Positions 7,926 through 50,912 of a DNA stretch of 64,000 nt are shown in pieces; the stretch's first letter is position 1, and every line of letters starts with the position of its first letter. Position numbers and translations under genes: made by a program. The DNA is from an uncultured Anaerolineales bacterium (lineage in GTDB: Bacteria; Chloroflexota; Anaerolineae; Anaerolineales; UBA11858). The notes beneath the pieces are model-generated. The model was not told the DNA's origin, made no database searches, and saw nothing but the letters and a program-made list of their open reading frames with translations. Location of the stretch: positions 11,240 to 75,239 of the forward strand of contig CAYVQU010000002.1 in NCBI GenBank assembly GCA_964453155.1, written 5' to 3'.

Positions 7926-9254
7926 ATGAAAACAGTTGTAAAAATTTTGAATTATATTCGTCTGGCCTTGTTCCCGATTGGGTACGGCCTGACCGGAGCC
8001 TTGATTGGCGGCACCTTGAACCGCATCATGATCGCCGATATTGGCCTGCCCGCTTCTTTGGTAGGGTTGTTCTTTGCCGTCCCGCTGATGATTTCTCCCT
8101 TGCGGGTTTGGCTGGGCTATCGCTCAGACGGATTCCCCATCATGGGCCGCCGCCGTGAGCCGTATATGATCTTGGGCTTCGTTTTGGCGGGGATTGGGAT
8201 CCTATTGATCACCACCATTTCTGTGGGAATCGGTAAAGTCAACATGGCGCTGGTTGCCGGTGTATTCGTGGCCTTTGCAACCTATGGTTTGGGCCGCAAC
8301 TTAGCGCACAACTCCTTCCAGGCCCTGATCGCCGATAAGTTTAAGGGCGACCAACGCCCCCGCGCGGTCACCGCCTACGAAGTTGCTACGATGATCGGGC
8401 TGATTATTGGGGCTGGTGGTCTCGGTGGCGCGCTTAAAACTTATGATCCAGGCAAACTGGTCCAGGTCGCGATTGGCGTGGCGATCATCGCCCTGGTACT
8501 GACCTTCCTGGGCGCCATCGGTCAGGAACCCCGCACCGATGTCACCACCAAGGCCTCCGACAAGGCCCGCGAAACATCCTTCGCCGAATCGGTAAAAACC
8601 TTGATCTTGCCCGATCCCCAAATTCGCCTATTCTTTATCCTCGTATTCTTTACGATGGTCGGTACCCTGGCACAAGATGTTTTACTAGAACCCTACGGGG
8701 CGCTGGTGTTGGGTATGGAAGTCGGTGAGACCACCAAACTGACCCAGTTCTGGGGGATTGGCGTGCTGATTAGTATGCTCGTCTCCGGGGTTTTCCTGAT
8801 CAAATGGCTCGGACAGATGACCGTCTTGCGAATGGGGATTGTTGCCAGCATTTTGGTTTTCGTTGGGATCATCGTCGCTGGGATGGCTGGTAACGTCGGT
8901 CTGTTCAACCAACTTGTGCTGGTTATGGGCCTGGGCACCGGGCTGGCTGGTGCCGGTTTGTTAGCCGGGATCGTCAATTTCACGACCGTTATTCGAGCAG
9001 GATTATTGATGGGTGTTTGGGGGATGGCCAACCAGGTCGGGCATGCTTTCGGCAGCCTGATGGGCGGCGGCGTGGTTGATATCATGCAATCGGTCACCGG
9101 CGGGGATGCGTTTGTATCCTATGCGACAGTATTCGCCCTTGAGGTCGTCATGCTAGTCGTCGCCCTGTGGATGACCACCCGCCTCGACGTCCGCGCCGCA
9201 CAGGTGCAGGTTGAGGAAGTTACCCAGTTGGATGGGAGTGGAGCTGCGGAATAA
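7926..9254 (+). CDS. BCD-family MFS transporter (PucC/LhaA-like)
   Basis: GTLNRIMIADIGLPASLVGLFFAVPLMISPLRVWLGYRSDG...GRRREPYMILG closely parallels the conserved N-terminal block of PucC/LhaA proteins. It has about 12 predicted TM segments. Confidence 0.8.
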   Translation: MKTVVKILNYIRLALFPIGYGLTGALIGGTLNRIMIADIGLPASLVGLFFAVPLMISPLRVWLGYRSDGFPIMGRRREPYMILGFVLAGIGILLITTISVGIGKVNMALVAGVFVAFATYGLGRNLAHNSFQALIADKFKGDQRPRAVTAYEVATMIGLIIGAGGLGGALKTYDPGKLVQVAIGVAIIALVLTFLGAIGQEPRTDVTTKASDKARETSFAESVKTLILPDPQIRLFFILVFFTMVGTLAQDVLLEPYGALVLGMEVGETTKLTQFWGIGVLISMLVSGVFLIKWLGQMTVLRMGIVASILVFVGIIVAGMAGNVGLFNQLVLVMGLGTGLAGAGLLAGIVNFTTVIRAGLLMGVWGMANQVGHAFGSLMGGGVVDIMQSVTGGDAFVSYATVFALEVVMLVVALWMTTRLDVRAAQVQVEEVTQLDGSGAAE

Positions 9255-9279: not shown

Positions 9280-9309
9280 GTAGGGGCGGGTTTCGAAACC
9301 CGCCCCTAC
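9280..9309. repeat. REP-like perfect palindrome GTAGGGGCGGGTTTC/GAAACCCGCCCCTAC
   Basis: It is a 30-bp perfect palindrome between convergent genes (7926-9254 + and 9314-9583 -). Confidence 0.85.
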
Positions 9310-23050: not shown

Positions 23051-23080
23051 TGTAGGGACCCAATATATTGGGTCCCTACA
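23051..23080. repeat. REP-like palindrome variant TGTAGGGACCCAATAT/ATATTGGGTCCCTACA
   Basis: It is a 30-bp perfect palindrome. Its right arm supplies the last Leu codon and the TAG stop of the DtxR-family gene. Confidence 0.8.
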
Positions 23081-23744
23081 AGACCTCCACAAATATCTCA
23101 CAAGTAATACTCGGTCCCAAAACCACCGGTTCAGGCTGTCCGTCTACTTGAATTTTGAGATTACCATCGAAAGGCGAGATTTCGACCACCGTCAGAACCG
23201 CATGGGGTACAACGCCATTTTCGCCCAGGTAACGCAGTAATTCGGGGTCATCATCCGGAACTTGTTTGATCTCCGCCCGTTGGCCGATGGACAAATCTCC
23301 TAAACAGAGTGAAGTCGTCGCGGGGACTTTTAAATCACGAGAAGGGATCGGGGCGCCATGAGGATCATACTCCGGATTGCCTAACACTGCCGCCATCCGC
23401 TCAACAAAACGCGGCGAGATAACGTGCTCCAGGCGATGGGCTTCAGCATGCACCTCATCCCAGGGGAAGCCTAATATTTCATGGAGAAATTGTTCCAACA
23501 ACCGATGGCTGCGCGTAATTTTTAGCGCGGCATGTTCACCATCAGTGGTCAAAGTAACGCCGTAATGTTTCTTATACTCCACTAACGGCTGCTGGCTTGC
23601 GGCCAATTTCTGGATCATCCCGGTGACCGAGGCCGGTTTGACCTCCAACGCAGCGGCAATATCTTTCGTGCTGGCGCGGCCATGTTGGGCAGACAGATCG
23701 TAGATGATCTTGAGATAGTCTTGAATGGCGGGGGTTAAGTTCAT
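23076..23744 (-). CDS. DtxR/MntR-family metal-dependent transcriptional regulator with C-terminal FeoA/SH3-like domain
   Basis: The N-terminal wHTH shows AIQDYLKIIYDL...STKDIAAALEVKPASVTGMIQKL. The metal-site region shows HRLEHV...DPHGAPIP. An SH3-like tail follows. Confidence 0.85.
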   Translation of the reverse strand: MNLTPAIQDYLKIIYDLSAQHGRASTKDIAAALEVKPASVTGMIQKLAASQQPLVEYKKHYGVTLTTDGEHAALKITRSHRLLEQFLHEILGFPWDEVHAEAHRLEHVISPRFVERMAAVLGNPEYDPHGAPIPSRDLKVPATTSLCLGDLSIGQRAEIKQVPDDDPELLRYLGENGVVPHAVLTVVEISPFDGNLKIQVDGQPEPVVLGPSITCEIFVEVL

Positions 23745-34554: not shown

Positions 34555-34580
34555 GTAGGGGCGCAATCGTGCGCCCCTAC
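34555..34580. repeat. REP-like hairpin GTAGGGGCGCA-ATCG-TGCGCCCCTAC
   Basis: It has an 11-bp stem and a 4-nt loop, and sits between feoB and the feoC-like gene. Confidence 0.8.
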
Positions 34581-34586
34581 ATATAT

Positions 34587-36326
34587 TTATCCTAATCCCA
34601 ACAACAAACCACCCTGGAAGACGACAAAGGCCATCATCCAGGCCAAAACCAACTGCCCCAGGATCGAAACCCAGGTCCATTTCATCCCGAGTTCCTGGCG
34701 TTCGGCCGCGACGGCAACCATGCAGGGAGTGTAGATCAACACGAAGACCATAAAAGCCAGGGCTGCCAAGGCCGCGTGACCACCACTGGAAGTCTCAAAC
34801 CCGGATCGAATCGCACCCATCAGGGCACTGGGCTCTTCTTCAGCATCTTCATCAAACAAATTGATCCCCACAATCAGCGGCAGAGATTTAAGCGTGTCAC
34901 CGGTCGCGCTGACGAAGGAGGTTACAATTTCGCGCAGGTCCGCCCCAAAGGTGGTCGGTTCAGCTGCAGCCTCGGCTTCTTCGACATCATAGACCTGCGA
35001 CATGGTGCTGACGACCACTTCTTTGGCGACAAACCCGGTCAGCAGGGCGCTGCTGGCTTGCCAGTTGCCAAATCCCAAAGGTTTTAGCAGTGGAGCGGTG
35101 ACCCGGTTAATACCCGCGAACAGGCTGTTTTCTAGGTCTACCTCGGCAAACGGTTCCCCCTGAACAATTGGGGTCGCCATCAAAATCCAGATCAAAATGG
35201 AGGTGCCTAAAATAATGGTGGTGGCATTCTTCAAAAAAGTACCAACCCGCTTCTGGACGTAGATCCCGACGGATTGCATGTTCGGCCAGCGGTAAGGGGG
35301 CAACTCGATGATCAAGGCTGATTGTTCTTTGCCTTTGAAAACCGTGTTGCGCAAGATCACCCCAAAAACCAGAGCGGTTAAGATCCCCAATAGATACATG
35401 CTGAATACGGCCGTCCCGGCATTATTCGAGAAGAAGATGGCTCCAAACAAAATATAAACCGGCAGGCGGGCCCCACAGCTCATGAAGGGCACCAATAACC
35501 CAGTCAGAATCCGGTCTTTCTCGTTTTCGAGGGTGCGGGTGGCGTAAAAGGCTGGTACTGTGCACCCAAATCCGACCAGCATCGGCAAGAAGCTCTTGCC
35601 GTGCAATCCGATGGCACTCATCACCCGGTCCATCACAAAAGCCCCGCGGCTCATATAACCGGTGTCTTCCAAAATCGCCAGCGCCAGATATAAGAACCCG
35701 AGTACCGGTACAAAAACCAGCACGCCACCGACCCCGGCAATGATCCCGTCCACAAACAGGCTGCTGACCCAGGTATCCCCCAGACCCAACGCGGCGATAA
35801 TGGCGGCCACCCACTTGGTAATTGGACCGCCGATCAACCCATCAACCCAATCCAAATAGGGCGCCGAGACTTCGGCCGTCAATTTGAACACGGCCCACAT
35901 GACGACTAAGAAAATGGGAATACCCAGGTAGCGGTGTGTCAGGATACTGTCCAAGCGATCAGAAAAAGATACCGAGGCGGTCGCGGGGCGTGAAACCGCG
36001 TTATGCACCAATTGGTTGATCCACTGATAGCGCCGGTCGGCGATCTGGACGTCTAAATCTTCACCGTGGATTTCCCGCAGCCGGGCCACGCTTTGTTTGG
36101 ATTTCTCAATTAGATCCGAGCCCCCTTGTAAAGCCAATAATTTGATCTGAATATCGCGATCTTCTTCCAGTAATTTGATCGCCACCCAGCGAGCCGGGTA
36201 TTTGTCCTGAATTTGGGGGTGATTGCCAATCTCATTAATCAGGGACCCAATTTCGATTTCTAACTCGGTCCCATAGTTAATTTTGAAGGTATTGTCTACC
36301 GATAAAGTTGATTCTGCAAAACTCAT
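34587..36326 (-). CDS. feoB: FeoB helical plus membrane portion, separate ORF
   Basis: It starts at the helical domain (ARWVAIKLLEEDRD...QIADRRYQWI...LDSILTHRYLGIPIFLVVM), and the full polytopic FeoB core follows. GAGGA lies upstream of the ATG. Confidence 0.88.
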   Translation of the reverse strand: MSFAESTLSVDNTFKINYGTELEIEIGSLINEIGNHPQIQDKYPARWVAIKLLEEDRDIQIKLLALQGGSDLIEKSKQSVARLREIHGEDLDVQIADRRYQWINQLVHNAVSRPATASVSFSDRLDSILTHRYLGIPIFLVVMWAVFKLTAEVSAPYLDWVDGLIGGPITKWVAAIIAALGLGDTWVSSLFVDGIIAGVGGVLVFVPVLGFLYLALAILEDTGYMSRGAFVMDRVMSAIGLHGKSFLPMLVGFGCTVPAFYATRTLENEKDRILTGLLVPFMSCGARLPVYILFGAIFFSNNAGTAVFSMYLLGILTALVFGVILRNTVFKGKEQSALIIELPPYRWPNMQSVGIYVQKRVGTFLKNATTIILGTSILIWILMATPIVQGEPFAEVDLENSLFAGINRVTAPLLKPLGFGNWQASSALLTGFVAKEVVVSTMSQVYDVEEAEAAAEPTTFGADLREIVTSFVSATGDTLKSLPLIVGINLFDEDAEEEPSALMGAIRSGFETSSGGHAALAALAFMVFVLIYTPCMVAVAAERQELGMKWTWVSILGQLVLAWMMAFVVFQGGLLLGLG

Positions 36327-41585: not shown

Positions 41586-41779
41586 AAATTGGTACCCGGA
41601 TTTAATGGATATAACGGATTTTTCAACCGCGAATAACGCTAAGCTTCACGAATATAAAAATTAGCGTCAATTCGCGTGACACCTGCACTTGTCACCGCAG
41701 GTGCAAGTGTTAGCGGTTTTATATCCGCAAAATCTGCGTTAGCGAAGCGACATCCGCGTACAAAAAGATGGAGAACACA

Positions 41780-44700
41780 ATGGCATTCAAACAAGTACCC
41801 AACAAAGTCGACTTTGTCGACCAAGAACACGAAGTTTTGGCGTTCTGGAAAGATACCGACGCCTTTGAAAAATCCCGCGCCCTGCGGAAGGACAAACCGA
41901 CTTGGTCCTTCATCGACGGCCCGATCACGGCCAACAACCCGATGGGCGTCCATCACGGCTGGGGTCGGACCTATAAGGATCTCTACAACCGCTTCTGGAC
42001 CATGACGGGCCGCGAGCTCCGCTACCAGAATGGCTTTGACTGCCAGGGTTTGTGGGTCGAAGTCGAAGTTGAGAAAGAAAAAGGCTTCAAATCCAAGATG
42101 GATATTGAAGAATACGGCCTCGACGAATTCGTCAAGGAATGTAAAGCCCGCGTGCTGCGCTACGCGGGGGTCCAGACCCACCAATCGATGCGTCTCGGCT
42201 ACTGGATGGAGTGGAACGACCCCGAGAAACTCAATATGCTGGCTGACAAATTGCTCGAAGATCCGCTGCAAGAGATCACCTTCACCGGGCCGAATGGCAA
42301 AACCGTCACCGACACCGTCGAACAGGTCGTCGGCCAACTCGGTTTGGCCCAACTGGGTGGCAGCTACTTCACCTTCTCCAATGAAAACAACTTCATGATC
42401 TGGAAAATGATCAAGAAGAGTTGGGAGAACGGCTGGCTCTACCGCGGCGCCGACGTCATGCCCTGGTGCCCGCGCTGCGCCACCGGGATCAGCCAGCACG
42501 AGATCGTCACTGACGGGTATATGGAGCTGACGCACCGCTCCGTGACGCTGCGATTCCCCCTGCGAGACAAACCGGGTGAATCCCTCCTCGTCTGGACCAC
42601 CACCCCCTGGACCCTGACATCCAACGTCGCCGCAGCCGTCGGCCCCGAACTGGATTACGTCAAGGTCAAAAACAATGGGCACATCTTATATATGTCCAAA
42701 GGTACCCTCCACATGCTGAAGGGCGACTATGAAGTCCTGGCTGAACTCAAAGGTGCCGAGATGGAAGGCTGGACCTACGATGGTCCCTTCGATGATTTGC
42801 CCGCGGCCAACACTCCCGGCGGTGTGACCTATCTCGACGAGTTGATCGAAGGGATCACCGCCACTGCCGTGACCTCCCACCAGGTCATCCTGTGGGACGA
42901 AGTTGGCGAGGCCGAAGGTACCGGCATCGTCCACATCGCACCCGGTTGTGGGGCCGAGGACTTTGAACTCGGCAAAGAGCATAATTTCCCGTTGATCGCC
43001 CCCATCGAGGATGAAGGTGCCTTCATCGACGGCTTCGGCTGGCTGACTGGAATGCATGTCTCGGAAGTTGCTGATCCCATCTTCGAAGATCTGAAGAAAA
43101 AGGGCGTGCTCTACGTCGTCGAGCCCTACACCCACCGCTACCCGACCTGCTGGCGCTGCAAGACCGAATTGGTTTTCCGCCTGGTCGATGAGTGGTTCAT
43201 CAGCATGGGCCAATTGCACGACAAACCGCGTGAGCAGGTCACCGCGGCCGAGAAACAAGAATCCCTGCGCTACCAGATCATGGACGTGGTCGATCAAATC
43301 CGTTGGATTCCCGAATTTGGCCACAAACGCGAACTCGATTGGCTCCGCAACATGCACGACTGGATGATCTCCAAGAAACGCTATTGGGGCCTGGCCCTGC
43401 CAATCTGGGTCTGTGATGAGTGTGGCCACTACCACGTCATCGGCGACGATCACGAACTCGAAGAGCGCGCCGTTGAAGGCTGGGACGAATTCGCCGGTCA
43501 CACACCCCACCGCCCCTTCATCGACGCCATCAAGATCGTCTGCGACAAATGCGAATCCAAAATGAGCCGTATCCCCGATGTCGGCAACCCCTGGCTCGAT
43601 GCCGGGATCGTCAGCTTCAGCACCCTCGGTTACCGCGATGACCCCGAATTCTGGCAAAAATGGTATCCAGCCGACTGGATCAGCGAATCCTTCCCCGGCC
43701 AGTTCCGCAACTGGTTCTACAGCATGCTCACCATGGGCACCGTCCTCGATGGCTCGCCCTCCTTCCTGGAAAACTTCGGTTACGCTAGCCTGCACGCCGA
43801 GGACGGCCGCGAGATGCACAAATCGTGGGGCAACTCCATCGAATTCAATGAAGCTGCCGACAAAATGGGCGTCGACACCATGCGCTGGCTGTACTGTGCC
43901 CACAAACCCGAGAACAACCTGCTCTTCGGCTACAACCGGGCCGAAGAAACCCGCCGCCGGTTCATTATTCCTTTGTGGAATGTGTACTCATTCTTCTCCA
44001 CATATGCGAGTTTAGATGGGTGGGTTCCGACGGTTGAGAACTTTGAACCTGGCACCCCCGAGGGTCCCACGCCCCAGAGTGATAACCCGTTGGACGCGTG
44101 GATTTTGGCCCGCCTGAACCAGGTGGTGGCCCGCGTCACCGATAATTTCACCAACTCCGACGCTTATACCGCCACCCTGGCTTTCGAGGCCCTGATGGAC
44201 GATTTGAGCAACTGGTTCGTCCGCCGCTCCCGCCGCCGCTTCTGGAAGTCCGAGCAGGATAACGACAAGAACACGGCCTACGCCACCCTGTGGCACGTCC
44301 TGGTCAAGATGGGCCGGGCGCTGGCCCCCGTGATCCCCTTTATCACCGAAGTCATGTACCAAAATCTGGTCCGCGGGGTGTTTGACGAAGCCTATGAAAG
44401 CGTCCACCACACTGACTGGCCTGAGATCGACGAAGCCGCCATCGACGAAAAACTCGTCTACCAGATGGGACTGGCCCGCCGGGTCGCCAGCCTGGGCCTC
44501 AGCGCTCGCGGCAACGCTGGCTTGAAAGTGCGCCAACCGCTGGCCAAAGTTTTGGCCCACGTTTCTGAAGGCGAAGCCGAACTCAACCAGGAACTGGTCG
44601 ATATCGTCGCCGACGAACTCAACGTCAAGGCCCTCCAATTTGTCGAGGATGCTGGCGACTTGGTCAGCTACAAAGTTTTGCCGGTCAACAAAGTCCTCGG

Positions 44701-45217
44701 CCCCCGTTTCGGCAAGGATTTCCCCAAAGTCCGTGCCGCCCTGGCAGCCCTGGACCCCGCCGAAGTTGCTGAAACTGTTGCAGCCGGTAAACCGGTCACC
44801 TTCGAAGTGGCCGGTGAAACCATCGAGTTGGCCCCCGACGAAGTCCTGGTCAACACTGAGTCGGCCGAAGGCATGGCCGTCGCCGCCGACAAAATCGTCA
44901 CCGTCGCCATCGACACCGTCCTGACCCCCGAACTGAAAGCCGAAGGACTGGCCCGCGAACTCGTCCGCCGCATCCAGGCCCAGCGCAAAGACGCCGATTT
45001 TAATATCGAAGACCGCATCACCACCTGGTATCAGGCTGAAGATGACCCTTCGACAGGCTTAGGACAGGGACTGGCCGAAGTTTTTGCGACCTTCGCCGAC
45101 TACATCCAAGCTGAAACCCTGACGACAAAACTCGTCGCCGGGGAACCGCCCGCAGAGGCCTACACCGAAACCCACAAAGTCGAAGGCCAGGAGGTCACCA
45201 TCGGCGTGAAGAATTAA
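41780..45217 (+). CDS. ileS: isoleucine--tRNA ligase
   Basis: It has a class I HIGH-type motif (NNPMGVHHGWGR), an editing-domain insert, a Zn-type Cys cluster (CDECGHYH...CDKCES), a KMSKS-position variant (MHKSWGNS) and an anticodon-binding region. I preferred the ATG at 41780 (GGAG 6 nt upstream) over the one at 41768. Confidence 0.92.
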   Translation: MAFKQVPNKVDFVDQEHEVLAFWKDTDAFEKSRALRKDKPTWSFIDGPITANNPMGVHHGWGRTYKDLYNRFWTMTGRELRYQNGFDCQGLWVEVEVEKEKGFKSKMDIEEYGLDEFVKECKARVLRYAGVQTHQSMRLGYWMEWNDPEKLNMLADKLLEDPLQEITFTGPNGKTVTDTVEQVVGQLGLAQLGGSYFTFSNENNFMIWKMIKKSWENGWLYRGADVMPWCPRCATGISQHEIVTDGYMELTHRSVTLRFPLRDKPGESLLVWTTTPWTLTSNVAAAVGPELDYVKVKNNGHILYMSKGTLHMLKGDYEVLAELKGAEMEGWTYDGPFDDLPAANTPGGVTYLDELIEGITATAVTSHQVILWDEVGEAEGTGIVHIAPGCGAEDFELGKEHNFPLIAPIEDEGAFIDGFGWLTGMHVSEVADPIFEDLKKKGVLYVVEPYTHRYPTCWRCKTELVFRLVDEWFISMGQLHDKPREQVTAAEKQESLRYQIMDVVDQIRWIPEFGHKRELDWLRNMHDWMISKKRYWGLALPIWVCDECGHYHVIGDDHELEERAVEGWDEFAGHTPHRPFIDAIKIVCDKCESKMSRIPDVGNPWLDAGIVSFSTLGYRDDPEFWQKWYPADWISESFPGQFRNWFYSMLTMGTVLDGSPSFLENFGYASLHAEDGREMHKSWGNSIEFNEAADKMGVDTMRWLYCAHKPENNLLFGYNRAEETRRRFIIPLWNVYSFFSTYASLDGWVPTVENFEPGTPEGPTPQSDNPLDAWILARLNQVVARVTDNFTNSDAYTATLAFEALMDDLSNWFVRRSRRRFWKSEQDNDKNTAYATLWHVLVKMGRALAPVIPFITEVMYQNLVRGVFDEAYESVHHTDWPEIDEAAIDEKLVYQMGLARRVASLGLSARGNAGLKVRQPLAKVLAHVSEGEAELNQELVDIVADELNVKALQFVEDAGDLVSYKVLPVNKVLGPRFGKDFPKVRAALAALDPAEVAETVAAGKPVTFEVAGETIELAPDEVLVNTESAEGMAVAADKIVTVAIDTVLTPELKAEGLARELVRRIQAQRKDADFNIEDRITTWYQAEDDPSTGLGQGLAEVFATFADYIQAETLTTKLVAGEPPAEAYTETHKVEGQEVTIGVKN

Positions 45218-45225
45218 TCTACGAC

Positions 45226-45253
45226 GTAGGGGCGCAATATATTGCGCCCCTAC
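45226..45253. repeat. REP palindrome GTAGGGGCGCAATAT/ATATTGCGCCCCTAC
   Basis: It is a 28-bp perfect palindrome between the ileS stop and the RAYT RBS. Confidence 0.9.
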
Positions 45254-45271
45254 CCGTATTGGGAGGAATTT

Positions 45272-45823
45272 ATGACCAGGGGACGAAAACCAAAATACGA
45301 TCCACAAAAACACCAGCGTAAATCCATTCGGTTGCGGGGCTATGACTACACCCAAGCAGGCGCGTATTTCGTGACCATTTGCACTTATCAGCGGGAATGT
45401 TTGTTCGGTGAAATTATGAACGAGGAAATGGTCTTAAACGAATTGGGTGTTATTGCAAATGAATGTTGGCGCGCCCTTCCTGAACATTTCCCTCGCGTAG
45501 AATTGGGGGCGTTTGTGGTTATGCCTAATCATGTGCATGGGATTGTTATCATTACCGAATCCAAGGTAGGGGCGCAGCATGCTGCGCCCCTACGACAGCA
45601 ATCAATAAACGTGAAACCCGGATCACTAGGCGCAATTGTGCGTTCATTCAAAGCCGCCGCCACTCGCCGCATTGGACGCGAACAAGGCATATCAGGCATT
45701 TGGCAGCGCAATTATTACGAACACATCATTCGCAACGAGGTCGGCCTGCACCGCATTACTGCTTACATCGAAGCTAACCATGCAAATTGGGAAACAGATA
45801 GTGAAAACCCTAAAAATATTTGA
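45272..45823 (+). CDS. REP-associated tyrosine transposase (RAYT, IS200-like Y1 HUH family)
   Basis: It has the HUH motif (PNHVHGIVII) and the catalytic region WQRNYYEHIIRNE...ITAYIEAN. A GGGAGG RBS lies before the ATG at 45272. REP palindromes lie upstream, inside and downstream. Confidence 0.85.
   Translation: MTRGRKPKYDPQKHQRKSIRLRGYDYTQAGAYFVTICTYQRECLFGEIMNEEMVLNELGVIANECWRALPEHFPRVELGAFVVMPNHVHGIVIITESKVGAQHAAPLRQQSINVKPGSLGAIVRSFKAAATRRIGREQGISGIWQRNYYEHIIRNEVGLHRITAYIEANHANWETDSENPKNI
45566..45593. repeat. REP palindrome variant GTAGGGGCGCAGCAT/ATGCTGCGCCCCTAC inside the RAYT CDS
   Basis: It is a 28-bp perfect palindrome, in frame, encoding VGAQHAAPL between the HUH and Tyr motifs. 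Confidence 0.85.
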
Positions 45824-45862
45824 CGTGGTATCATCTCCAAAAATGATTTTTCAGGAGTATAA

Positions 45863-46498
45863 ATGCGCATTTTAGCCCTTTGCGACGACATCTGGCATCC
45901 GGCGCAAGTTGTTCAAGACGGGTTGTTAGGTCTAGAAAAACACGGTTTTGAATTCGACTTCATAACTAACGCGCGGGAATGGTCTTCCGAGCGAATGGCC
46001 GAATATCCGCTGGTGATTTTGGCAAAGGCGAATAATATCTCAGCCGCTGATGAAACGCCCTGGATGATACCCGAAGTGGCGCAGGTTTTTCAGGAGTATG
46101 TCCAGACCGGGAATGGGTTGTTGGCAATCCATTCGGGGACGGCGGGATATGCGGATACACTGGTTTTACGGAGGGTGTTGGGTGGTGTGTTTCGAGAGCA
46201 TCCGGAGCAGTGTGAGGTGACAATAAAATCCGTCGTAGGGGCGCAATATATTGCGCCCCTACCATCTAACGAATTCTCCATTATGGATGAACATTATTTC
46301 ATGGAATTGGATGATGATCAGGCCACAGTGTTTATGACAACCACGTCCGAACATGGGACCCAACCGGGGGGTTGGACGCGGATGGAGGGGGATGGAAGGG
46401 TGTGTGTGTTGACACCAGGGCATAATTTGGCGGTATGGGAGCAGCCGGTGTATCAGGATTTGATTGAGCAGGCAATAAATTGGGCTGGTAATTTGTAG
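45863..46498 (+). CDS. ThuA-like (class I glutamine amidotransferase-like fold) protein
   Basis: It is 211 aa with a ThuA-type layout (MRILAL.DD.WHP...LLAIHSG...HPE...TPGHN). It contains an in-frame REP palindrome. Confidence 0.6.
   Translation: MRILALCDDIWHPAQVVQDGLLGLEKHGFEFDFITNAREWSSERMAEYPLVILAKANNISAADETPWMIPEVAQVFQEYVQTGNGLLAIHSGTAGYADTLVLRRVLGGVFREHPEQCEVTIKSVVGAQYIAPLPSNEFSIMDEHYFMELDDDQATVFMTTTSEHGTQPGGWTRMEGDGRVCVLTPGHNLAVWEQPVYQDLIEQAINWAGNL
46235..46262. repeat. REP palindrome identical to 45226-45253, inside the ThuA-like CDS
   Basis: It is a 28-bp perfect palindrome, in frame, encoding VGAQYIAPL. Confidence 0.9.
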
Positions 46499-46524
46499 GG
46501 GCAGGTTTGAAACCTGCCCCTACA
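46494..46524. repeat. REP palindrome variant TGTAGGGGCAGGTTT-G-AAACCTGCCCCTACA
   Basis: It overlaps the ThuA-like stop codon (TAG in GTAGGGG) and ends 12 nt before the next gene. Confidence 0.85.
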
Positions 46525-46536
46525 TGAGGGATTTTC

Positions 46537-47256
46537 ATGGATCAAAATACGTTTGTAACCGGTGCAGATCGCGGGTTGGGGTTGGCAATTTGTGCGAATT
46601 TATTGGAACGCGGCTGGCAGGTATTTGCGGGACAGTATTTACCCGATTGGCACGAGTTGGGAGAGTTGACAAATTGGTATCCCGGGAAATTACACCTGAT
46701 CCCGTTGGATGTGGCTGCGCTGGAGTCGGTGCAGGCGGCGGCCAAGGAAGTAGCGACGGTAACCGGTCATATTGATCTGCTGGTTAACAACGCGGGGGTT
46801 AATACACCGACGAAGGAGCGAAAAATACACCAGGGACAGGATTACGCCGAGTTCGACCGAATGTATCAGATCAATGCAGTTGGTCCGATTCGGGTAGTGG
46901 AATCCTTTTGGGGTTTGGTGGAGCAGGGGAATCTCAAACGGTTGGCATTTATATCTTCGGAGGCAGCCAGCATCAAACGATGTACCCGGGAGGCGTGGTA
47001 CGGCTACACGATGTCAAAAGCCGCGCTAAATCGGGCCGTGAAGATCATGTTTAACCACCTCCATCCTAAAGGATATACGTTTCGGCTCTTTCATCCCGGC
47101 TGGGTGCAATCCTATATCGGAGGCGAATACAATCATGAGGCCCATCTAACTCCCACAGAATCGGCTGCCGCCGCGGTTGAGCATTTTCTCAACCCATTGG
47201 AAAATGAAGCCCAATTGGCCATGATTGATTGGGAGGAACGGTCATGGCCGTGGTAA
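46537..47256 (+). CDS. SDR-family oxidoreductase
   Basis: It has the cofactor motif VTGADRGLGLA, NNAG, and YTMSK for the YxxxK catalytic motif. Confidence 0.8.
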   Translation: MDQNTFVTGADRGLGLAICANLLERGWQVFAGQYLPDWHELGELTNWYPGKLHLIPLDVAALESVQAAAKEVATVTGHIDLLVNNAGVNTPTKERKIHQGQDYAEFDRMYQINAVGPIRVVESFWGLVEQGNLKRLAFISSEAASIKRCTREAWYGYTMSKAALNRAVKIMFNHLHPKGYTFRLFHPGWVQSYIGGEYNHEAHLTPTESAAAAVEHFLNPLENEAQLAMIDWEERSWPW

Positions 47257-47363: not shown

Positions 47364-50300
47364 ATGGCAAAGAGAAAGTGGAACCCAGGGATTGAAGTTT
47401 TGGTCGCCATCATTGGGATGGTTGGATTAGCTGCGTTGGCATTTTCCCAAATATCTGCATTGAGCGCTAGCAGTGAGGCCTGGCATGTGGCTGTCGTAGG
47501 CCCCATGAGTGGAAAAAACCAGGCCAAAGGCCAAGAAATGGTGCAAGGGGTAAGCCTGTATATCGATCAGATCAATGCTCAAGGGGGTATTAACGGTAAA
47601 CCGGTAAGACTGCTGCCCCCATATGATGATCAAAATGATCCCGATTTAGCGCGGCAAGCGGCCGAAAAAATCGCGGCCGAAAGTCAGGCCTTGGTGGTGT
47701 TTGGCCACCGCTCGACTGAAGCCTCGGTGGCCGGTGGTGCAATCTATCAAGAATATGGGGTTCCAGCCATCTCAGGGTCGGAGGCCGAAACCGAGGGCAA
47801 TGACTGGTACTTTCGCACGACTTCCAGCAACCAGGATCAAGCGATCTTTTTAGCCAACTACGTTCGCCGGATTTTGGGACAGGAGACGGTCAGCATCATA
47901 TTTGATCAAGATACCTATGGGACTTCAATCGCTGAGAATTTTGAGTATACCTTCCAAGGATTAGGGGGAGAGATCAAATTTAAATGGAGTTTTGATACCC
48001 AAACCGGTGATTTAGAGGCCCAAATCGACGAAATCGTAACCGCCCTGCTCAAAGCCCGCAACGACAACCCCGGGATGCTGTTCATGTCCACGCATGGTAA
48101 TGAAGCCGTCAAAATCGTAACCGCGCTACGGCGTAAGGGGTTGAAATATGCCATAATCGGTACTGATTCCTTAGGAACCCCGGCAATGGGTGAAAAATTT
48201 GCGACCTATCCTGAAGAGCAAAGCCAGCCCGGCTATCTCTCCGATGGAATATATGCCGTCACCGATGTCCTCTTTGATGTCGGTGGTGAGGAGGCGGCCC
48301 AATTCAAGAATTATTTCATTAAAGCCTATGGGGAAGATCCCGGTTCGCGGGCCGCCACTTACTATAACGCCGCTATTGCCGCCTTCCACGCCATGGAACA
48401 GGCCGACCTGCAGGGGGATTCTATCAATTTGGCCGCCGACCGGTTGAAAATCCGCAACCAACTTCTAGCCTTGAATAATCTCAATAATATCGCCACCGGC
48501 ATCGGCGGCCCGGTTTTTTTCGATGATCATGGCGATGTGGTTAAGGCCATGTCGATGGGCATATTTGATCACCAAAAATTCATCTCAGCGCTGACCCAAC
48601 TCAAACCGATTACCGATCTCAACCGCATCCCCGATCTCAATGCCGAATTGGCGGCAGGACGGGTACATGTGGTCAATGGCGAATATATGCTCCAGACCAA
48701 CGTGGTCTACGCGGGGATGGATATTAATGAAATCAGCAACCTAGATATCAAAAATTCATCGTACACGGTTGATTTTTACTTGTGGTTCCGCTATCGCGGC
48801 GATTTTGAACCCGATAATATCGAGTTCATCAACATCAAGGGAAAGACCAATCTGGGCGAACCGATCATCCATGATGTGATCGATGGCGTCACTCACAAAC
48901 TGTACCGGATTAAAACCGAGTTTATCGGTGATTTTTCTTTTTACGATTACCCCTTCGATGAGCAGGATGTTGAGATTAAATTTCGACATATCAGTATGAC
49001 CCGCGACCAACTGCTGTACGTGGTCGATGTGGTCGGCATCCGGGAAACCGCCAGCCAGGATATTTTGGCAAAATTCGACCGGGCGCAGGTCCTCGATTCC
49101 ATCGACACCTGGGAGGCAACCACAGTTAAGTTTTTCCAGGATTCACTCCATAATGAATCTACGCTCGGTTCGCCCCACTTCTTTGACACCGTTTCAGACA
49201 TCGAATATTCCCGTTTCAACGCCAATATTGGTCTCAAGCGCGATGTACTCAGCTTTACGATCAAAAACCTGCTGCCCCTGTTTGCCATCATCATTCTAGC
49301 CTATATTGCCGCTTTGCTGGCCCCGGCGCAGTTTGCAATCACCAACGCCATTTTGCGCGGCTCACTGCTGACGGTAGCCTTCTTTCATATCAAATTGTCG
49401 AACGATCTCCCTGGCATCGGTTACACCGTGGCCCTCGATTATGTGTTTTATATGATGTATGTGTTGATCGTCTTGCTCCTCATTTTGACGGTTCTCAGTC
49501 ATAATGATCATCAAAATAACCAGTTAAAACGGGCCAGAGTGTTTAACCAGATTGGGCGGATACTTTATCCGGTGGTCATCTTGGGATGTGGAATATTCTT
49601 TGTGACCCGGTTTGATCTGCTGACCCGTTTCAATGTGGCGGGAATGGCGGAATCCGAGGCATTAACGGCTACCGCCGATGAGGCTGCCGCTCCCACTGCC
49701 TCACCCGGTGAGGGGGCGGCTGACGAGGCAGTCGTCCTCACTTTGGGTTCCTGGCGGGTCGAGGACGACGAGCAAATGACCCGCATCCTGGATATTTTCA
49801 ACGCCGAACATCCTGATATCACGGTGAAATTCTCCCCCGGGGTTGAATATCAGCCGACCCTGACGTTCCAACTCGAGAATGGGATCGCGCCCGATCTGTT
49901 TTATATATCGTCTTATTCATTCTCCCAAAATCTGTTCAAACGGGGATTTTTGGAAACCGTAAATGATGTTCCCGGTCTGAACGAGAGTTTCCCCGCGGCG
50001 GCGATTGCAGCCTGGGCTACGGATGATGGCACAGTCTATGGGGTGCCCTTCCTGGCCGTTTCCCATGGGGTGTATTACAACCAGGATATTTTTGATGAAC
50101 TTGGACTGGCAATCCCAACCACCTGGGAAGAATTCCTGACCGTTTCTGAGCAAATCAAAGCAGCCGGATATATTCCGCTCGCTAATGCTCCTGGGCAGCA
50201 TGGCGCGTTTGCGGAAGAAGTTTTCATGAATTTAGCCCCCAATTTCATCGGCGGTCAGACCGGGAGGGAGCAGTATTTAACCGGGGAACGCTGCTTTAAC

Positions 50301-50912
50301 GATGCGCACACAACTGCAGCCTACCAGGCAGTTTTAGATTTAGGTCCTTATTTGCCTGAAAATGGAACCGAACTCAGTTCCCATGATAGCAAGCGGATGT
50401 GGCTAGATGGTGAGGCCACCATGATGATGGGCGGTTCGTGGGATATCTCGTTTTTCGAAGGGCAGGCTCCCGATTTTGAGTGGAGTATTTTTGCCATCCC
50501 TGCGCCGGAGGGGCAAACGCAATACGTAACTTTCCATCCCGACGCAGCCATTGGTCTGAGTGCGGCATCCCCACATAAAGCTGAAGCCAAAATCTTCTTG
50601 GAATGGTTGACAACCCCCAAAGTGGCCGAATTGCTCAATAATGAACTGCCGGGCTTTTTCTCCATGCAAAGCTACGCGCCCGAAATTCAAAACGAACACG
50701 CCAATACCTTCTTGGGTCTCAACCAGGGTCGAGGTACCGATGTCCGCTGGCCGTACCCGGTCCTGCGGGACAGCATCCCCGATGGATTTGCGCTGATGAA
50801 AGATGGAACCGCCGCGGTCATTCGAGAAGAAATGACACCCCAAGAAGCTGCTGATGCCCTGCAAGCAGGCTTGGCCCAATGGTTTAAACCGGCGCAAGTC
50901 TGTGGAAAATAA
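47364..50912 (+). CDS. tripartite fusion: LivK-type periplasmic binding domain + pentameric ligand-gated ion channel (ECD + 4 TM) + family-1 solute-binding domain
   Basis: It has a signal-like N-terminus. Residues ~40-400 look like Peripla_BP_6 (VAVVGPMSGKNQAKGQEMVQGVSLYIDQINAQGGINGKPV). Residues ~445-628 form a pLGIC extracellular domain with YPFDEQDVEIKF. Residues ~629-750 contain M1 (NLLPLF), M2, the M2-M3 loop LPGIGYTVALDY, M3 and M4. Residues ~788-1182 look like a sugar-type SBP. Confidence 0.8.
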   Translation: MAKRKWNPGIEVLVAIIGMVGLAALAFSQISALSASSEAWHVAVVGPMSGKNQAKGQEMVQGVSLYIDQINAQGGINGKPVRLLPPYDDQNDPDLARQAAEKIAAESQALVVFGHRSTEASVAGGAIYQEYGVPAISGSEAETEGNDWYFRTTSSNQDQAIFLANYVRRILGQETVSIIFDQDTYGTSIAENFEYTFQGLGGEIKFKWSFDTQTGDLEAQIDEIVTALLKARNDNPGMLFMSTHGNEAVKIVTALRRKGLKYAIIGTDSLGTPAMGEKFATYPEEQSQPGYLSDGIYAVTDVLFDVGGEEAAQFKNYFIKAYGEDPGSRAATYYNAAIAAFHAMEQADLQGDSINLAADRLKIRNQLLALNNLNNIATGIGGPVFFDDHGDVVKAMSMGIFDHQKFISALTQLKPITDLNRIPDLNAELAAGRVHVVNGEYMLQTNVVYAGMDINEISNLDIKNSSYTVDFYLWFRYRGDFEPDNIEFINIKGKTNLGEPIIHDVIDGVTHKLYRIKTEFIGDFSFYDYPFDEQDVEIKFRHISMTRDQLLYVVDVVGIRETASQDILAKFDRAQVLDSIDTWEATTVKFFQDSLHNESTLGSPHFFDTVSDIEYSRFNANIGLKRDVLSFTIKNLLPLFAIIILAYIAALLAPAQFAITNAILRGSLLTVAFFHIKLSNDLPGIGYTVALDYVFYMMYVLIVLLLILTVLSHNDHQNNQLKRARVFNQIGRILYPVVILGCGIFFVTRFDLLTRFNVAGMAESEALTATADEAAAPTASPGEGAADEAVVLTLGSWRVEDDEQMTRILDIFNAEHPDITVKFSPGVEYQPTLTFQLENGIAPDLFYISSYSFSQNLFKRGFLETVNDVPGLNESFPAAAIAAWATDDGTVYGVPFLAVSHGVYYNQDIFDELGLAIPTTWEEFLTVSEQIKAAGYIPLANAPGQHGAFAEEVFMNLAPNFIGGQTGREQYLTGERCFNDAHTTAAYQAVLDLGPYLPENGTELSSHDSKRMWLDGEATMMMGGSWDISFFEGQAPDFEWSIFAIPAPEGQTQYVTFHPDAAIGLSAASPHKAEAKIFLEWLTTPKVAELLNNELPGFFSMQSYAPEIQNEHANTFLGLNQGRGTDVRWPYPVLRDSIPDGFALMKDGTAAVIREEMTPQEAADALQAGLAQWFKPAQVCGK

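Follow-up and report, generated by a model that had tools for sequence, protein, structure and literature searches.

This locus raises the question of what kind of system is formed by an IS200-like HUH/Y1 gene and four palindromes that lie in and around it within 1.3 kb. It could be a chromosomal RAYT (TnpA-REP) gene with its cognate REPs, an insertion sequence that moves with its terminal hairpins, or a set of host hairpins that are only by accident close to such a gene. To this is added the question of whether a palindrome found inside the gene itself is a passenger or a maintained element. We have analyzed the whole stretch of DNA (64,000 nucleotides, the 64 kb window in what follows) and compared the gene with its homologues. 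Our analysis indicates that we are very probably dealing with a chromosomal, vertically inherited gene for an HUH/Y1 ssDNA nuclease, accompanied by copies of the "double-foot" REP that is cognate to it.

The RAYT gene and its product

The gene (45272-45823, + strand) is an intact ORF coding for a protein of 183 aa, with both PNHVHG and WQRNYYEH in its translation, so the IS200-like HUH/Tyr gene of the original prediction is indeed present. It is the only RAYT copy in the window. The protein matched the NCBIfam family NF047646 (REP_Tyr_transpos, E = 2e-17, 63.4 bits), under the equivalog cut-off of 80 set for a model that was presumably built on proteobacterial RAYTs. It also matched Pfam Y1_Tnp (PF01797, E = 2e-4, 22.1 bits), marginally under the gathering cut-off of 23, the score being reduced because a REP-encoded loop interrupts the core. 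A precomputed PF01797 match is present in many of the close homologues, and several of them carry the JGI label "REP element-mobilizing transposase RayT". When the AlphaFold model was compared with known structures by Foldseek, the best match was 4ER8, the E. coli TnpA-REP in complex with a REP hairpin (E = 5e-6, rmsd 2.5 A over 155 columns), and the transposases of ISDra2, IS608 and IS200 came next. With E <= 1e-3 there were 26 matches in the PDB; these, and likewise all the top-ranked 30 (E <= 1.6e-3), were TnpA-REP or IS200/IS605 transposases. The fold is RRM-like, a four-stranded sheet with helices beside it as in the solved Y1 transposases.

Aligned with 4ER8, the residues H87, H89, Y165 and N169 correspond to its catalytic H59, H61, Y115 and N119, and they are invariant among the 28 homologues aligned, so that both HUH and a catalytic Tyr are kept. 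In the model, the HUH histidines (H87-V-H89, 45530-45538, within MPNHVHG) are located on the beta strand 87-94, while Y165 (45764-45766) and N169, four residues after it, belong to the AYIEAN motif on the helix 156-167. This is the arrangement of Y1 nucleases, a single Tyr on the C-terminal helix with a metal or positioning residue four positions further on, as with N119 in E. coli TnpA-REP and Q131 in IS608. The alignment makes Y165 (YIEAN) the most likely catalytic Tyr. The original prediction had taken WQRNYYEHIIRNE for the Tyr motif, and this turned out to be the conserved W-strand. The C-terminus is found 14 residues past N169, that is, there is no C-terminal extension. Besides, an N-terminal motif upstream of the core, R16-S18-R20...D25-Y26, is also invariant in the 28 homologues.

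Palindromes between and inside the genes

Upstream of the RAYT gene is ileS, the isoleucyl-tRNA synthetase gene (41768-45217, +; Pfam tRNA-synt_1, Anticodon_1 and DUF5915), and downstream are a ThuA-like gene of the type 1 glutamine amidotransferase-like group (45863-46498, +; 211 aa; Pfam ThuA, E = 8e-27) and a short-chain dehydrogenase (SDR) gene (46537-47256, +). We searched the window for the pattern GTAGGGG-N(8-20)-CCCCTAC and found six matches (45226-45253, 45566-45593, 46235-46262, 46495-46523, 9280-9309 and 34555-34580), versus 0.00 in 100 dinucleotide-preserving shuffles. A seventh copy, at 23052-23079, has a variant foot, GTAGGGAC...GTCCCTAC. The four GTAGGGGC...GCCCCTAC palindromes originally described are thus real, with none expected by chance, and they cluster as had been supposed, with four copies in 1.3 kb versus three in the remaining 62.7 kb (Poisson P = 6e-7). 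GTAGGG...CCCTAC, i.e. the double foot plus three G-C pairs at the bottom of the stem, is present in all seven, and all of them fold as ssDNA hairpins of 12-14 bp (-15 to -17 kcal/mol, z -5 to -8). The inner stem is variable, and this single RAYT is seen alongside at least four inner-stem variants.

REP1 (45226-45253) is a perfect 28-bp double-foot palindrome, GTAGGGGCGCAATATATTGCGCCCCTAC, located in the intergenic space (as a hairpin, -17 kcal/mol, z = -7.0). The ileS stop codon is 8 nt before it, the RAYT ribosome-binding site (GGGAGG, 45261-45266) 7 nt after it, and the RAYT start codon at a distance of 18 nt. REP3 (46235-46262), 411 nt downstream of the RAYT gene, is the same 28-mer, as had been noted before; the two copies have four additional 5' bases in common, CG[A/T]C, and their identity reaches 33 nt with one mismatch. 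REP4 (46494-46524), 671 nt downstream, consists of a 29-bp core, GTAGGGGCAGGTTTGAAACCTGCCCCTAC, extended on the outside by one T-A pair. Bases 2-4 of this core (TAG, 46496-46498) are the stop codon of the ThuA-like gene, and the SDR start codon follows 13 nt after the end of the element. There is no REP immediately 3' of the RAYT stop codon. There are three dispersed copies. One at 9280-9309, GTAGGGGCGGGTTTCGAAACCCGCCCCTAC, is located 25 nt past the stop of an ORF at 7926-9254 (+), and a shorter one at 34555-34580, GTAGGGGCGCAATCGTGCGCCCCTAC, 6 nt past the stop of an ORF at 34587-36326 (-). In the copy with the variant foot (23052-23079), GTAGGGACCCAATATATTGGGTCCCTAC, the TAG on the minus strand is the stop codon of the ORF 23076-23744. 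Altogether, five of the seven REPs supply a stop codon or are found within 25 nt of one.

It had been claimed that all four clustered palindromes abut or overlap gene ends. This applies to REP1 and REP4; the other two are located within coding sequences. REP2 (45566-45593), a perfect 28-bp palindrome, GTAGGGGCGCAGCATGCTGCGCCCCTAC, is in frame within the RAYT gene, where it provides codons 99-107 (VGAQHAAPL), past the HUH motif and ahead of the catalytic Tyr. In the model, V99-L107 form the loop after the HUH strand and before the next helix, and pLDDT drops under 50 solely at residues 1-18 and 99-111. REP3 provides codons 125-133 (VGAQYIAPL) of the ThuA-like gene; V125-L133 fall between two beta strands, in a loop (124-137) with lowered pLDDT, and stand in place of the "VGHPL" loop of REP-less ThuA-like homologues. 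We considered whether a foot-like micro-homology in these homologues, GTTGG(G/T)CATCCACTC, could mark the site of insertion, and we do not claim it; the resemblance is weak and can be explained by the conserved V-G-H-P-L codons.

The exact 28-mer is found in at least 120 metagenome contigs; among those listed, none overlapped the window or was demonstrably from this organism. In the flanks of the 28-mer (122 copies) we saw no conserved sequence, except for a preference for pyrimidines at -1 and -2. Since the flanks are not conserved, we rejected the existence of a longer mobile unit, and the unit is the palindrome itself.

REPs at homologous loci and the alternative readings

We have compared 74 homologous RAYT loci, defining as linker the region of about 180 nt from HUH to W. 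The REPs are concentrated at these genes, as in the window, and most of all inside them. A strict double-foot REP was present in the linker of 36 of the 74 loci (39 copies), versus 10/74 for the 100 nt upstream and 7/74 downstream. The density was 2.9 REPs per kb in the linker, 0.33 up to 500 bp from the gene and 0.03 further away; that is, across phyla, the linker exceeds the adjacent flanks about 9-fold in REP density, and the genome around them about 100-fold. Together with the REP_Tyr_transpos match, 4ER8 as the best fold and the 5' GTAG feet that are typical of REPs, this concentration upholds the reading of the locus as a RAYT with its cognate REPs. The 72 distinct double-foot REPs found across loci included 50 28-mers, and the palindrome was still perfect when the RAYT proteins were only 45-60% identical. 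In 8 of the 18 informative loci the internal REP was the same as another REP of the locus.

These figures are also what gives some weight to the main alternative, namely that the internal REP of the RAYT gene is, instead of a passenger, a maintained cis-element, for example an autoregulatory site of binding or cleavage in the gene or its mRNA, or a reference copy that is inherited together with the enzyme. The linker is the most frequently filled position despite the demand for an in-frame insertion, and in about 14 loci its REP is the sole one in roughly 10 kb. The reading frames used by the linker REPs are distributed 25:11:0, both stop-free frames being in use, which indicates that what is retained is the DNA and not the peptide. 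Of the 72 distinct REPs, 45 are without a mismatch from end to end, including the would-be loop. Moreover, RAYTs with an identical internal REP are closer to each other (60% alike versus 53% otherwise; permutation p < 0.0005).

Against this alternative, some hairpin is present in the linker of 62 of 75 homologues and none in the other 13, and there are further homologues whose linker hairpins are decayed and have lost the GTAG foot. At the site orthologous to REP2, a sister species has the peptide VIGVQHAAPR, which implies a degraded foot. The distance from HUH to the REP varies between 15 and 60 nt, and some linkers (L076, L082, L084, L031) contain REP debris or as many as two or three REPs, which looks as if REPs had repeatedly been inserted and had decayed. 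As for a "master copy" role of REP2 in this window, we rejected it; the central hexamer GCATGC of REP2 is absent from the other six copies. Finally, the intragenic insertion has been modelled as peripheral to the active site (Quentin et al., 2018). Altogether, we consider a maintained cis-element rather unlikely. If true, a maintained linker REP would be a DNA-level element recognised by the enzyme in its own gene, and a role as reference copy would keep together the specificities of enzyme and REP. It would explain why these 180 nt are the most REP-dense known for these genomes, and also the perfect palindrome and the use of two frames. In the published view intragenic copies are neutral insertions, and the comparative figures offer a concrete reason to ask whether they mark insertion hot spots or functional cis-elements.

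A second alternative is that the palindromes are regulatory hairpins of the host (terminators, mRNA stabilisers or protein-binding sites) and that the proximity of the RAYT is incidental. E. coli REPs influence mRNA decay and translation termination, and the association of five of the seven copies with stop codons would fit a similar role here. However, the terminator scan called none of the REPs and no T-run follows any of them, Rfam gave no family at gathering score (only sub-threshold noise), and two copies are within coding sequences. The mismatches found in the REPs (GT 12, AC 8, CT 6, AG 5) show no clear G:U excess, which led us to reject selection at the RNA level; this lack of bias and the self-complementary would-be loop point to a constraint on the DNA. 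Nor is it incidental that, across phyla, REPs are concentrated roughly 100-fold in RAYT genes and their surroundings, and we find this alternative very improbable.

The inheritance of the locus bears on the last alternative. The order ileS-RAYT-ThuA-SDR is kept in a sister species whose RAYT is 78% identical, and a third lineage (L086) has a decayed RAYT pseudogene remnant at the ileS-ThuA junction. For L086 we discarded a REP-mediated deletion, since the junction is better explained by its two ends, which encode peptides similar to each other, IIxIND and IIRND. Orthologous REPs are retained across species, with inner stems that differ in a compensatory manner, and in a ThuA fragment of the sister species (L088) the orthologue of REP4 again overlaps the ThuA stop codon. 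Five independent metagenome contigs with the locus are 99.98-100% identical, and across them there is no polymorphism of filled and empty REP sites. Among 72,556 plasmids, only 5 have a RAYT homologue. An active IS200/IS605-type insertion sequence moving as a whole with its terminal hairpins, rather than a domesticated REPtron, could be argued from the Y1 HUH fold, from structural matches that include the IS200, IS608 and ISDra2 transposases, from the Pfam family name "Transposase IS200 like" and from the REP1 hairpin just 5' of the gene, but it is extremely improbable given the shared ileS-ThuA position and the decayed remnant, the single gene copy in the window, best structural and family matches to TnpA-REP and not to TnpA-IS200, hairpins dispersed without the gene, a 3' end with no hairpin, no tnpB, and metagenome copies that are nearly identical and without empty or filled variants.

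Proposed mechanism and known systems

For the preferred reading, a chromosomal RAYT with its cognate REPs, a mechanism can be transferred from the biochemistry of the TnpA-REP enzymes of E. coli, S. maltophilia and Marinomonas and from the 4ER8 structure. Wherever DNA becomes single-stranded, such as at the replication fork, the REP would fold into a hairpin, and a RAYT monomer would bind the hairpin and its GTAG foot. H87, H89 and N169 would hold a metal ion that positions a nearby phosphate. Cleavage at this phosphate by Y165 would leave a 5'-phosphotyrosine link, after which the strand would be joined to another 3'-OH; by such cutting and rejoining, REP copies would be spread or exchanged. 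Because the palindrome is symmetric, the same GTAG-footed hairpin is available on both strands. If the RAYT acts mostly near its own gene, as we infer, REPs would therefore accumulate there. The in-frame copies in surface loops, such as the RAYT linker and the ThuA loop, would be tolerated, and those adjacent to stop codons may double as mRNA hairpins. In the enzymes from which the mechanism is taken (subclasses 2.2 and 2.5) the GTAG is unpaired, whereas here it can pair with CTAC.

Among other dispersed palindromes, the Rickettsia palindromic elements (RPEs) differ in being longer (about 100-150 bp) and in having no known dedicated transposase. The TnpA of IS200/IS605 elements (IS608, ISDra2, IS200) shares with this RAYT the HUH/Y1 fold and the logic of recognising an ssDNA hairpin. 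However, these are dimeric enzymes of multi-copy mobile IS, with distinct hairpins at the left and right ends and often a tnpB, whereas here there is one syntenically conserved gene and the dispersed item is a short palindrome. The GTAG-tagged REPs (Di Nocera et al., 2013) are more similar. They have the GTAG foot and a terminus that supplies a TAG stop, they occur in Chloroflexi, and whole REPs were described in frame within genes of known proteins. In them the GTAG is at one end and unpaired, while here the tag is mirrored and the element is perfectly palindromic throughout.

E. coli TnpA-REP (YafM; 4ER8; subclass 2.2, group 2) is the best structural match, with aligned HUH, Tyr and Asn, and it is also a single chromosomal gene with GTAG-footed hairpins. 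The identity to the RAYT described here is only about 21%. The E. coli REPs are imperfect and bulged, with an unpaired 5' GTAG that has no CTAC partner, while here the GTAG can find one. The E. coli enzyme has a C-terminal tail that gives E161 to the metal site and an HUH-to-Tyr spacing of 54-56 aa, and its gene, unlike this one, is without an internal REP.

The closest counterparts are those of TnpA-REP subclass 2.4 (RAYT group 4), and from the format of the REPs and the anatomy of the gene we assign the locus, with considerable confidence, to the REPtrons of this subclass. Subclass 2.4 is defined by double-foot GT[AG]G / C[TC]AC REPs whose stem has three G-C pairs at its bottom; it has in-frame REPs within the tnpA-REP gene, between HuH and Y, and is scattered over Cyanobacteria, Bacteroidetes, Chloroflexi and others (Quentin et al., 2018, BMC Genomics 19:475). 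In the literature we found no biochemistry for any of its members. Table S1 of the same work gives the same 28-mer format for the subclass 2.4 of Chloroflexus aggregans, and we found that these 28-mers, e.g. GTAGGGGCACAGCGCGCTGTGCCCCTAC, are the internal REPs of two of our homologous loci (L041 and L025). Group 4 RAYTs are common in Caldilineae (Bertels et al., 2017, GBE 9:2110), and GTAG REPs had been reported in Chloroflexi (Di Nocera et al., 2013). The novelty of REP family and Chloroflexi context implied by the original prediction does not hold, both being already catalogued in these three studies, and the locus is an ordinary further example of a described class, to which it adds a case in the Anaerolineales with a corrected anatomy, two of its four REPs being intragenic. 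Its wider value is in the comparative figures, which identify the loop that follows the HUH strand in RAYT genes of subclass 2.4 as the densest REP site. As in other members of subclass 2.4 and group 4, the REPs flank the gene and are also in frame inside it, there is a variable insertion after beta3, the C-terminal extension is lacking, and a conserved motif precedes the core. The reported median spacing between HUH and Tyr is 88 aa, versus 78 aa from H87 to Y165 here. There is no difference in kind; what is particular to this locus is its uncultured Anaerolineales-like lineage, with inner-stem variants of its own.

Palindromes around the RAYT gene

The window has six matches to the pattern GTAGGGG-N(8-20)-CCCCTAC (at 9280, 34555, 45226, 45566, 46235 and 46495), which gave 0.00 matches in the shuffled window (100 dinucleotide-preserving shuffles). 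The original prediction of four palindromes around an HUH/Tyr gene, two of them identical 28-mers, was borne out by these matches. Four copies lie within 1.3 kb against three in the other 62.7 kb (Poisson P = 6e-7): REP1 (45226-45253), REP2 (45566-45593), REP3 (46235-46262) and REP4, whose 29-bp core is widened to 46494-46524 by an outer T-A pair. REP1 and REP3 are the identical 28-mers, with similarity reaching 33 nt with one mismatch. The seventh copy (23052-23079), with a variant foot, was detected in the window by a relaxed pattern. All seven are predicted to form ssDNA hairpins of 12-14 bp (-15 to -17 kcal/mol, z-scores -5 to -8).

The cluster comprises four genes, each on the + strand: ileS (41768-45217), the RAYT or TnpA-REP gene coding for an HUH/Y1 nuclease of 183 aa (45272-45823), a ThuA-like gene (45863-46498) and a short-chain dehydrogenase (SDR, 46537-47256). 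The expectation that all palindromes sit at gene ends holds for REP1, located 8 nt past the stop of ileS, its upstream neighbour, and 7 nt ahead of the RAYT ribosome-binding site, and for REP4, which supplies the ThuA-like TAG stop (46496-46498). It is wrong for the other two, since REP2 is inside RAYT (codons 99-107, peptide VGAQHAAPL) and REP3 inside the ThuA-like gene (codons 125-133, VGAQYIAPL), where the structure model places its peptide in a loop between two strands (residues 124-137). The three dispersed REPs are all intergenic; those at 9280 and 34555 are 6-25 nt past a stop codon, and the one at 23052-23079 provides the TAG stop (23076-23078) of the - strand ORF 23076-23744. In REP4 and in this last copy the stop is formed by bases 2-4 of GTAG.

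Similar situations were seen in metagenomes. Among the copies listed, 10 had REP base 4 as the exact end of an ORF (stop-to-stop stretch) of 100 codons or more, and the REP TAG serves as stop in L096, L102, L114, L128, L138, L151 and others, a use already recorded by Di Nocera et al. 2013. The 28-mer GTAGGGGCGCAATATATTGCGCCCCTAC was found inside ORFs of 700-1200 codons (metagenome loci L106, L126, L132, L165, L194, L197, L151 and L175), suggesting that it is no rarity for REPs of this family to lie in frame within ordinary genes. The 48 calls inside ORFs, among the matches listed, come from a naive ORF test and some are probably spurious overlapping frames. Besides, a 1182-aa ORF of the window (47364-50912, +) combines domains of two different periplasmic-binding-protein families, with ANF_receptor/Peripla_BP_6 N-terminal and SBP_bac_1/SBP_bac_8 C-terminal to a hydrophobic region; the syntenic relative has a conserved counterpart of 1193 aa.

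The RAYT protein and the REP in its linker

The protein matched NCBIfam REP_Tyr_transpos with E = 2e-17 (63 bits, under the 80-bit equivalog cut-off) and Pfam Y1_Tnp with 22.1 bits, under the gathering score of 23. The best PDB match of its AlphaFold model (alignment of 28 homologues, mean pLDDT 76) was the complex of E. coli TnpA-REP with a REP hairpin, 4ER8 (155 columns at rmsd 2.5 A, E = 5e-6), followed by IS200/IS605 transposases. In the sequence alignment H87/H89, Y165 and N169, all invariant among homologues, stand opposite the 4ER8 active site (H59/H61, Y115, N119). WQRNYYEH, first taken for the catalytic-Tyr motif, is actually the conserved W-strand, and it is Y165 that aligns with Y115. 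Model confidence was low only at the N-terminus and at residues 99-111, the latter being exactly the REP2-encoded peptide. The window contains an intact enzyme gene with a complete catalytic set and cognate palindromes, both clustered and dispersed, and its intragenic copies are predicted to fall in loops.

RAYT has more than 8000 homologues, the closest mostly from Anaerolineales. Their alignment is hypervariable in length after the HUH strand, and some peptides of this linker, which extends to the W-strand, recur despite the change of length (VGAQHAAPL, VGATHASPL, GRGAAMLRPY, VGAQHCCAPT). They are one kind of palindrome, GTAGGGGC...GCCCCTAC, read in different frames. We compared 80 homologous loci from Anaerolineae, Dehalococcoidia, Cyanobacteria, Desulfobacterota, Nitrospirota, Proteobacteria, Bacteroidota and Planctomycetota. 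A linker hairpin was present in 62 of 75 RAYT genes, and a strict double-foot REP (5' GT[AG]G mirrored by 3' C[TC]AC) in the linker of 36 of 74 loci. This represents 39 copies per 13,446 nt, or 2.9/kb, against 0.33/kb outside the linker up to 500 bp from the gene and 0.03/kb farther away. Intragenic REPs used the two stop-free frames at 25:11 and the TAG-reading frame 0 times.

The inner stem varies by locus and keeps its self-complementarity. Among 72 distinct REPs, 50 were 28-mers and 45 were perfect end to end. Of 53 REPs of even length, 42 had a self-complementary would-be loop, the 4 nt at the centre (chance 1 in 16), and the mismatches had no G:U excess, two features that point to a constraint or generating mechanism at the DNA level, not to peptide or RNA fold. 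Of 18 informative loci, 8 had a further REP identical to the internal one, and in most of the others the internal REP departed only by mirrored, compensatory changes. RAYTs with an identical internal REP were closer to each other (60% vs 53% identity, permutation p < 0.0005). Identical 28-mers are also found in RAYT genes across phyla with proteins only ~55-60% identical: L010 (a Desulfuromonas MAG) and the window, L006 (Anaerolinea) and L011 (Nitrospinota), L014, L022 and others. They could derive from horizontal transfer of the REPtron (the gene plus its cognate REPs) or from a constraint on the permitted inner sequences. The same few hexamers turn up repeatedly at the centre (ATATAT, GCATGC, AAATTT, GCGCGC). 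Two or three REPs, or REP debris, share one linker in L076 (three perfect 28-mers), L082, L084, L078, L009, L031 (VVGAQHAAPSGSAPSGSAPSGAAP) and L013.

Intragenic REPs have been regarded as neutral insertions in a peripheral loop (PMC6006769). REPs appear to have landed repeatedly in the RAYT linker, and a hot spot of recurrent insertion and decay would fit the variable offset of the linker REP, the multiple copies or debris in some linkers, the 13 genes devoid of a linker hairpin and the degraded foot in the sister species. That the intragenic REP is more than tolerated and is maintained for a function in cis seems to us unlikely, even if a REP is 3.6 to 5 times as frequent in the linker as in the adjoining 100 nt up- or downstream, coding constraints notwithstanding, and the linker often holds the sole REP in 10 kb.

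History of the ileS-ThuA junction

The order ileS-RAYT-ThuA-SDR is shared by a relative with a RAYT 78% and a ThuA 70% identical. A third genome from Chloroflexota (L086, GCA_042581465.1) has, after ileS and in this order, an intrinsic-terminator-like hairpin, a RAYT remnant, a decayed palindrome (GTGGGGATAAC...GCCCCCAC, ~1448-1475) and ThuA. The remnant (L086:1333-1437) is a 34-codon pseudogene, HLHGIIVINDDDLQHITSYIETNPTNWDKDDENP*, located at the junction that RAYT occupies in the window; it aligns with two separate parts of intact RAYTs and lacks the N-terminus and the stretch from linker to W-strand. Its internal deletion fuses two similar peptides, IIxIND and IIRND. The conserved order and the remnant show a RAYT that is old at this position, vertically inherited and decaying in some lineages, a behaviour housekeeping-like rather than insertion-sequence-like. 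RAYT homologues are almost missing from plasmids, with 5 of 72,556 records.

The ThuA genes of L086 and L087 have no REP, and PLVGHPL stands at the REP3 site. In the sister-species ThuA fragment (L088) the loop has a longer, degenerate REP-like insert and a REP again covers the stop codon, with an inner stem that is different yet complementary. By these counterparts REP3 and REP4 are orthologous, old and remodelled. As read in the window, REP3 has the sequence of the commonest 28-mer of the genome, which suggests overwriting of existing REPs at this site rather than fresh insertion. All three orthologous REPs of the sister species appear to begin with ATAGGGG, not GTAGGGG, on the coding strand (L088:398-444 and 673-699; residues 98-107 of P0002, from its syntenic contig); one retains the 3' CCCCTAC, and the RAYT-internal case is deduced from the peptide only. 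If these starts hold, the GTAG foot would be left only on the opposite strand, either because the REPs decayed together or because they are a single-foot variant with a strand orientation.

Candidate mechanism and relation to the published class

By analogy with the TnpA-REP of E. coli, S. maltophilia and Marinomonas, RAYT would bind the REP hairpin on single-stranded DNA and the GTAG foot would direct the choice of a nearby CT or CA dinucleotide. Cutting would proceed via a 5'-phosphotyrosine intermediate, giving an end that could be joined to another 3'-OH, and the symmetric double foot would offer the same substrate on both strands. Around 122 copies of GTAGGGGCGCAATATATTGCGCCCCTAC (L089-L208 and the window, among the matches listed) no longer stretch of flanking sequence is conserved. 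On the 5' side of GTAG, on either strand, T accounted for 49%, C for 29% and A for only 7% of the bases at -1, and T for 40% and C for 27% of those at -2. This pyrimidine-rich -1/-2 is possibly the footprint of a cleavage or target dinucleotide beside the foot, with which it is compatible without being proof.

The reading of the locus as a RAYT with cognate REPs was correct. Neither the unfamiliar type of REP nor its occurrence in Chloroflexota is new, since both were described by Quentin et al. 2018 (PMC6006769) and Di Nocera et al. 2013. The latter, the earlier of the two, reported GTAG REPs in Chloroflexi, REP termini as TAG stops and whole REPs within genes. Quentin et al. defined TnpA-REP subclass 2.4, which is RAYT group 4 of Bertels et al., through four features: a 'double foot' (5' GT[AG]G and 3' C[TC]AC), three G-C pairs at the start of the stem, a variable protein insertion between beta3 and alphaC, and, described as 'a remarkable and unique feature', REPs placed in frame between HuH and Y of the tnpA-REP genes. 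Their Table S1 includes the Chloroflexus aggregans 28-mers GTAGGGGCACAGCGCGCTGTGCCCCTAC and GTAGGGGCGACCGGCCGGTCGCCCCTAC, identical to the internal REPs of two of our homologous loci (L041 and L025). The window locus is a genuine REPtron of TnpA-REP subclass 2.4 / RAYT group 4.
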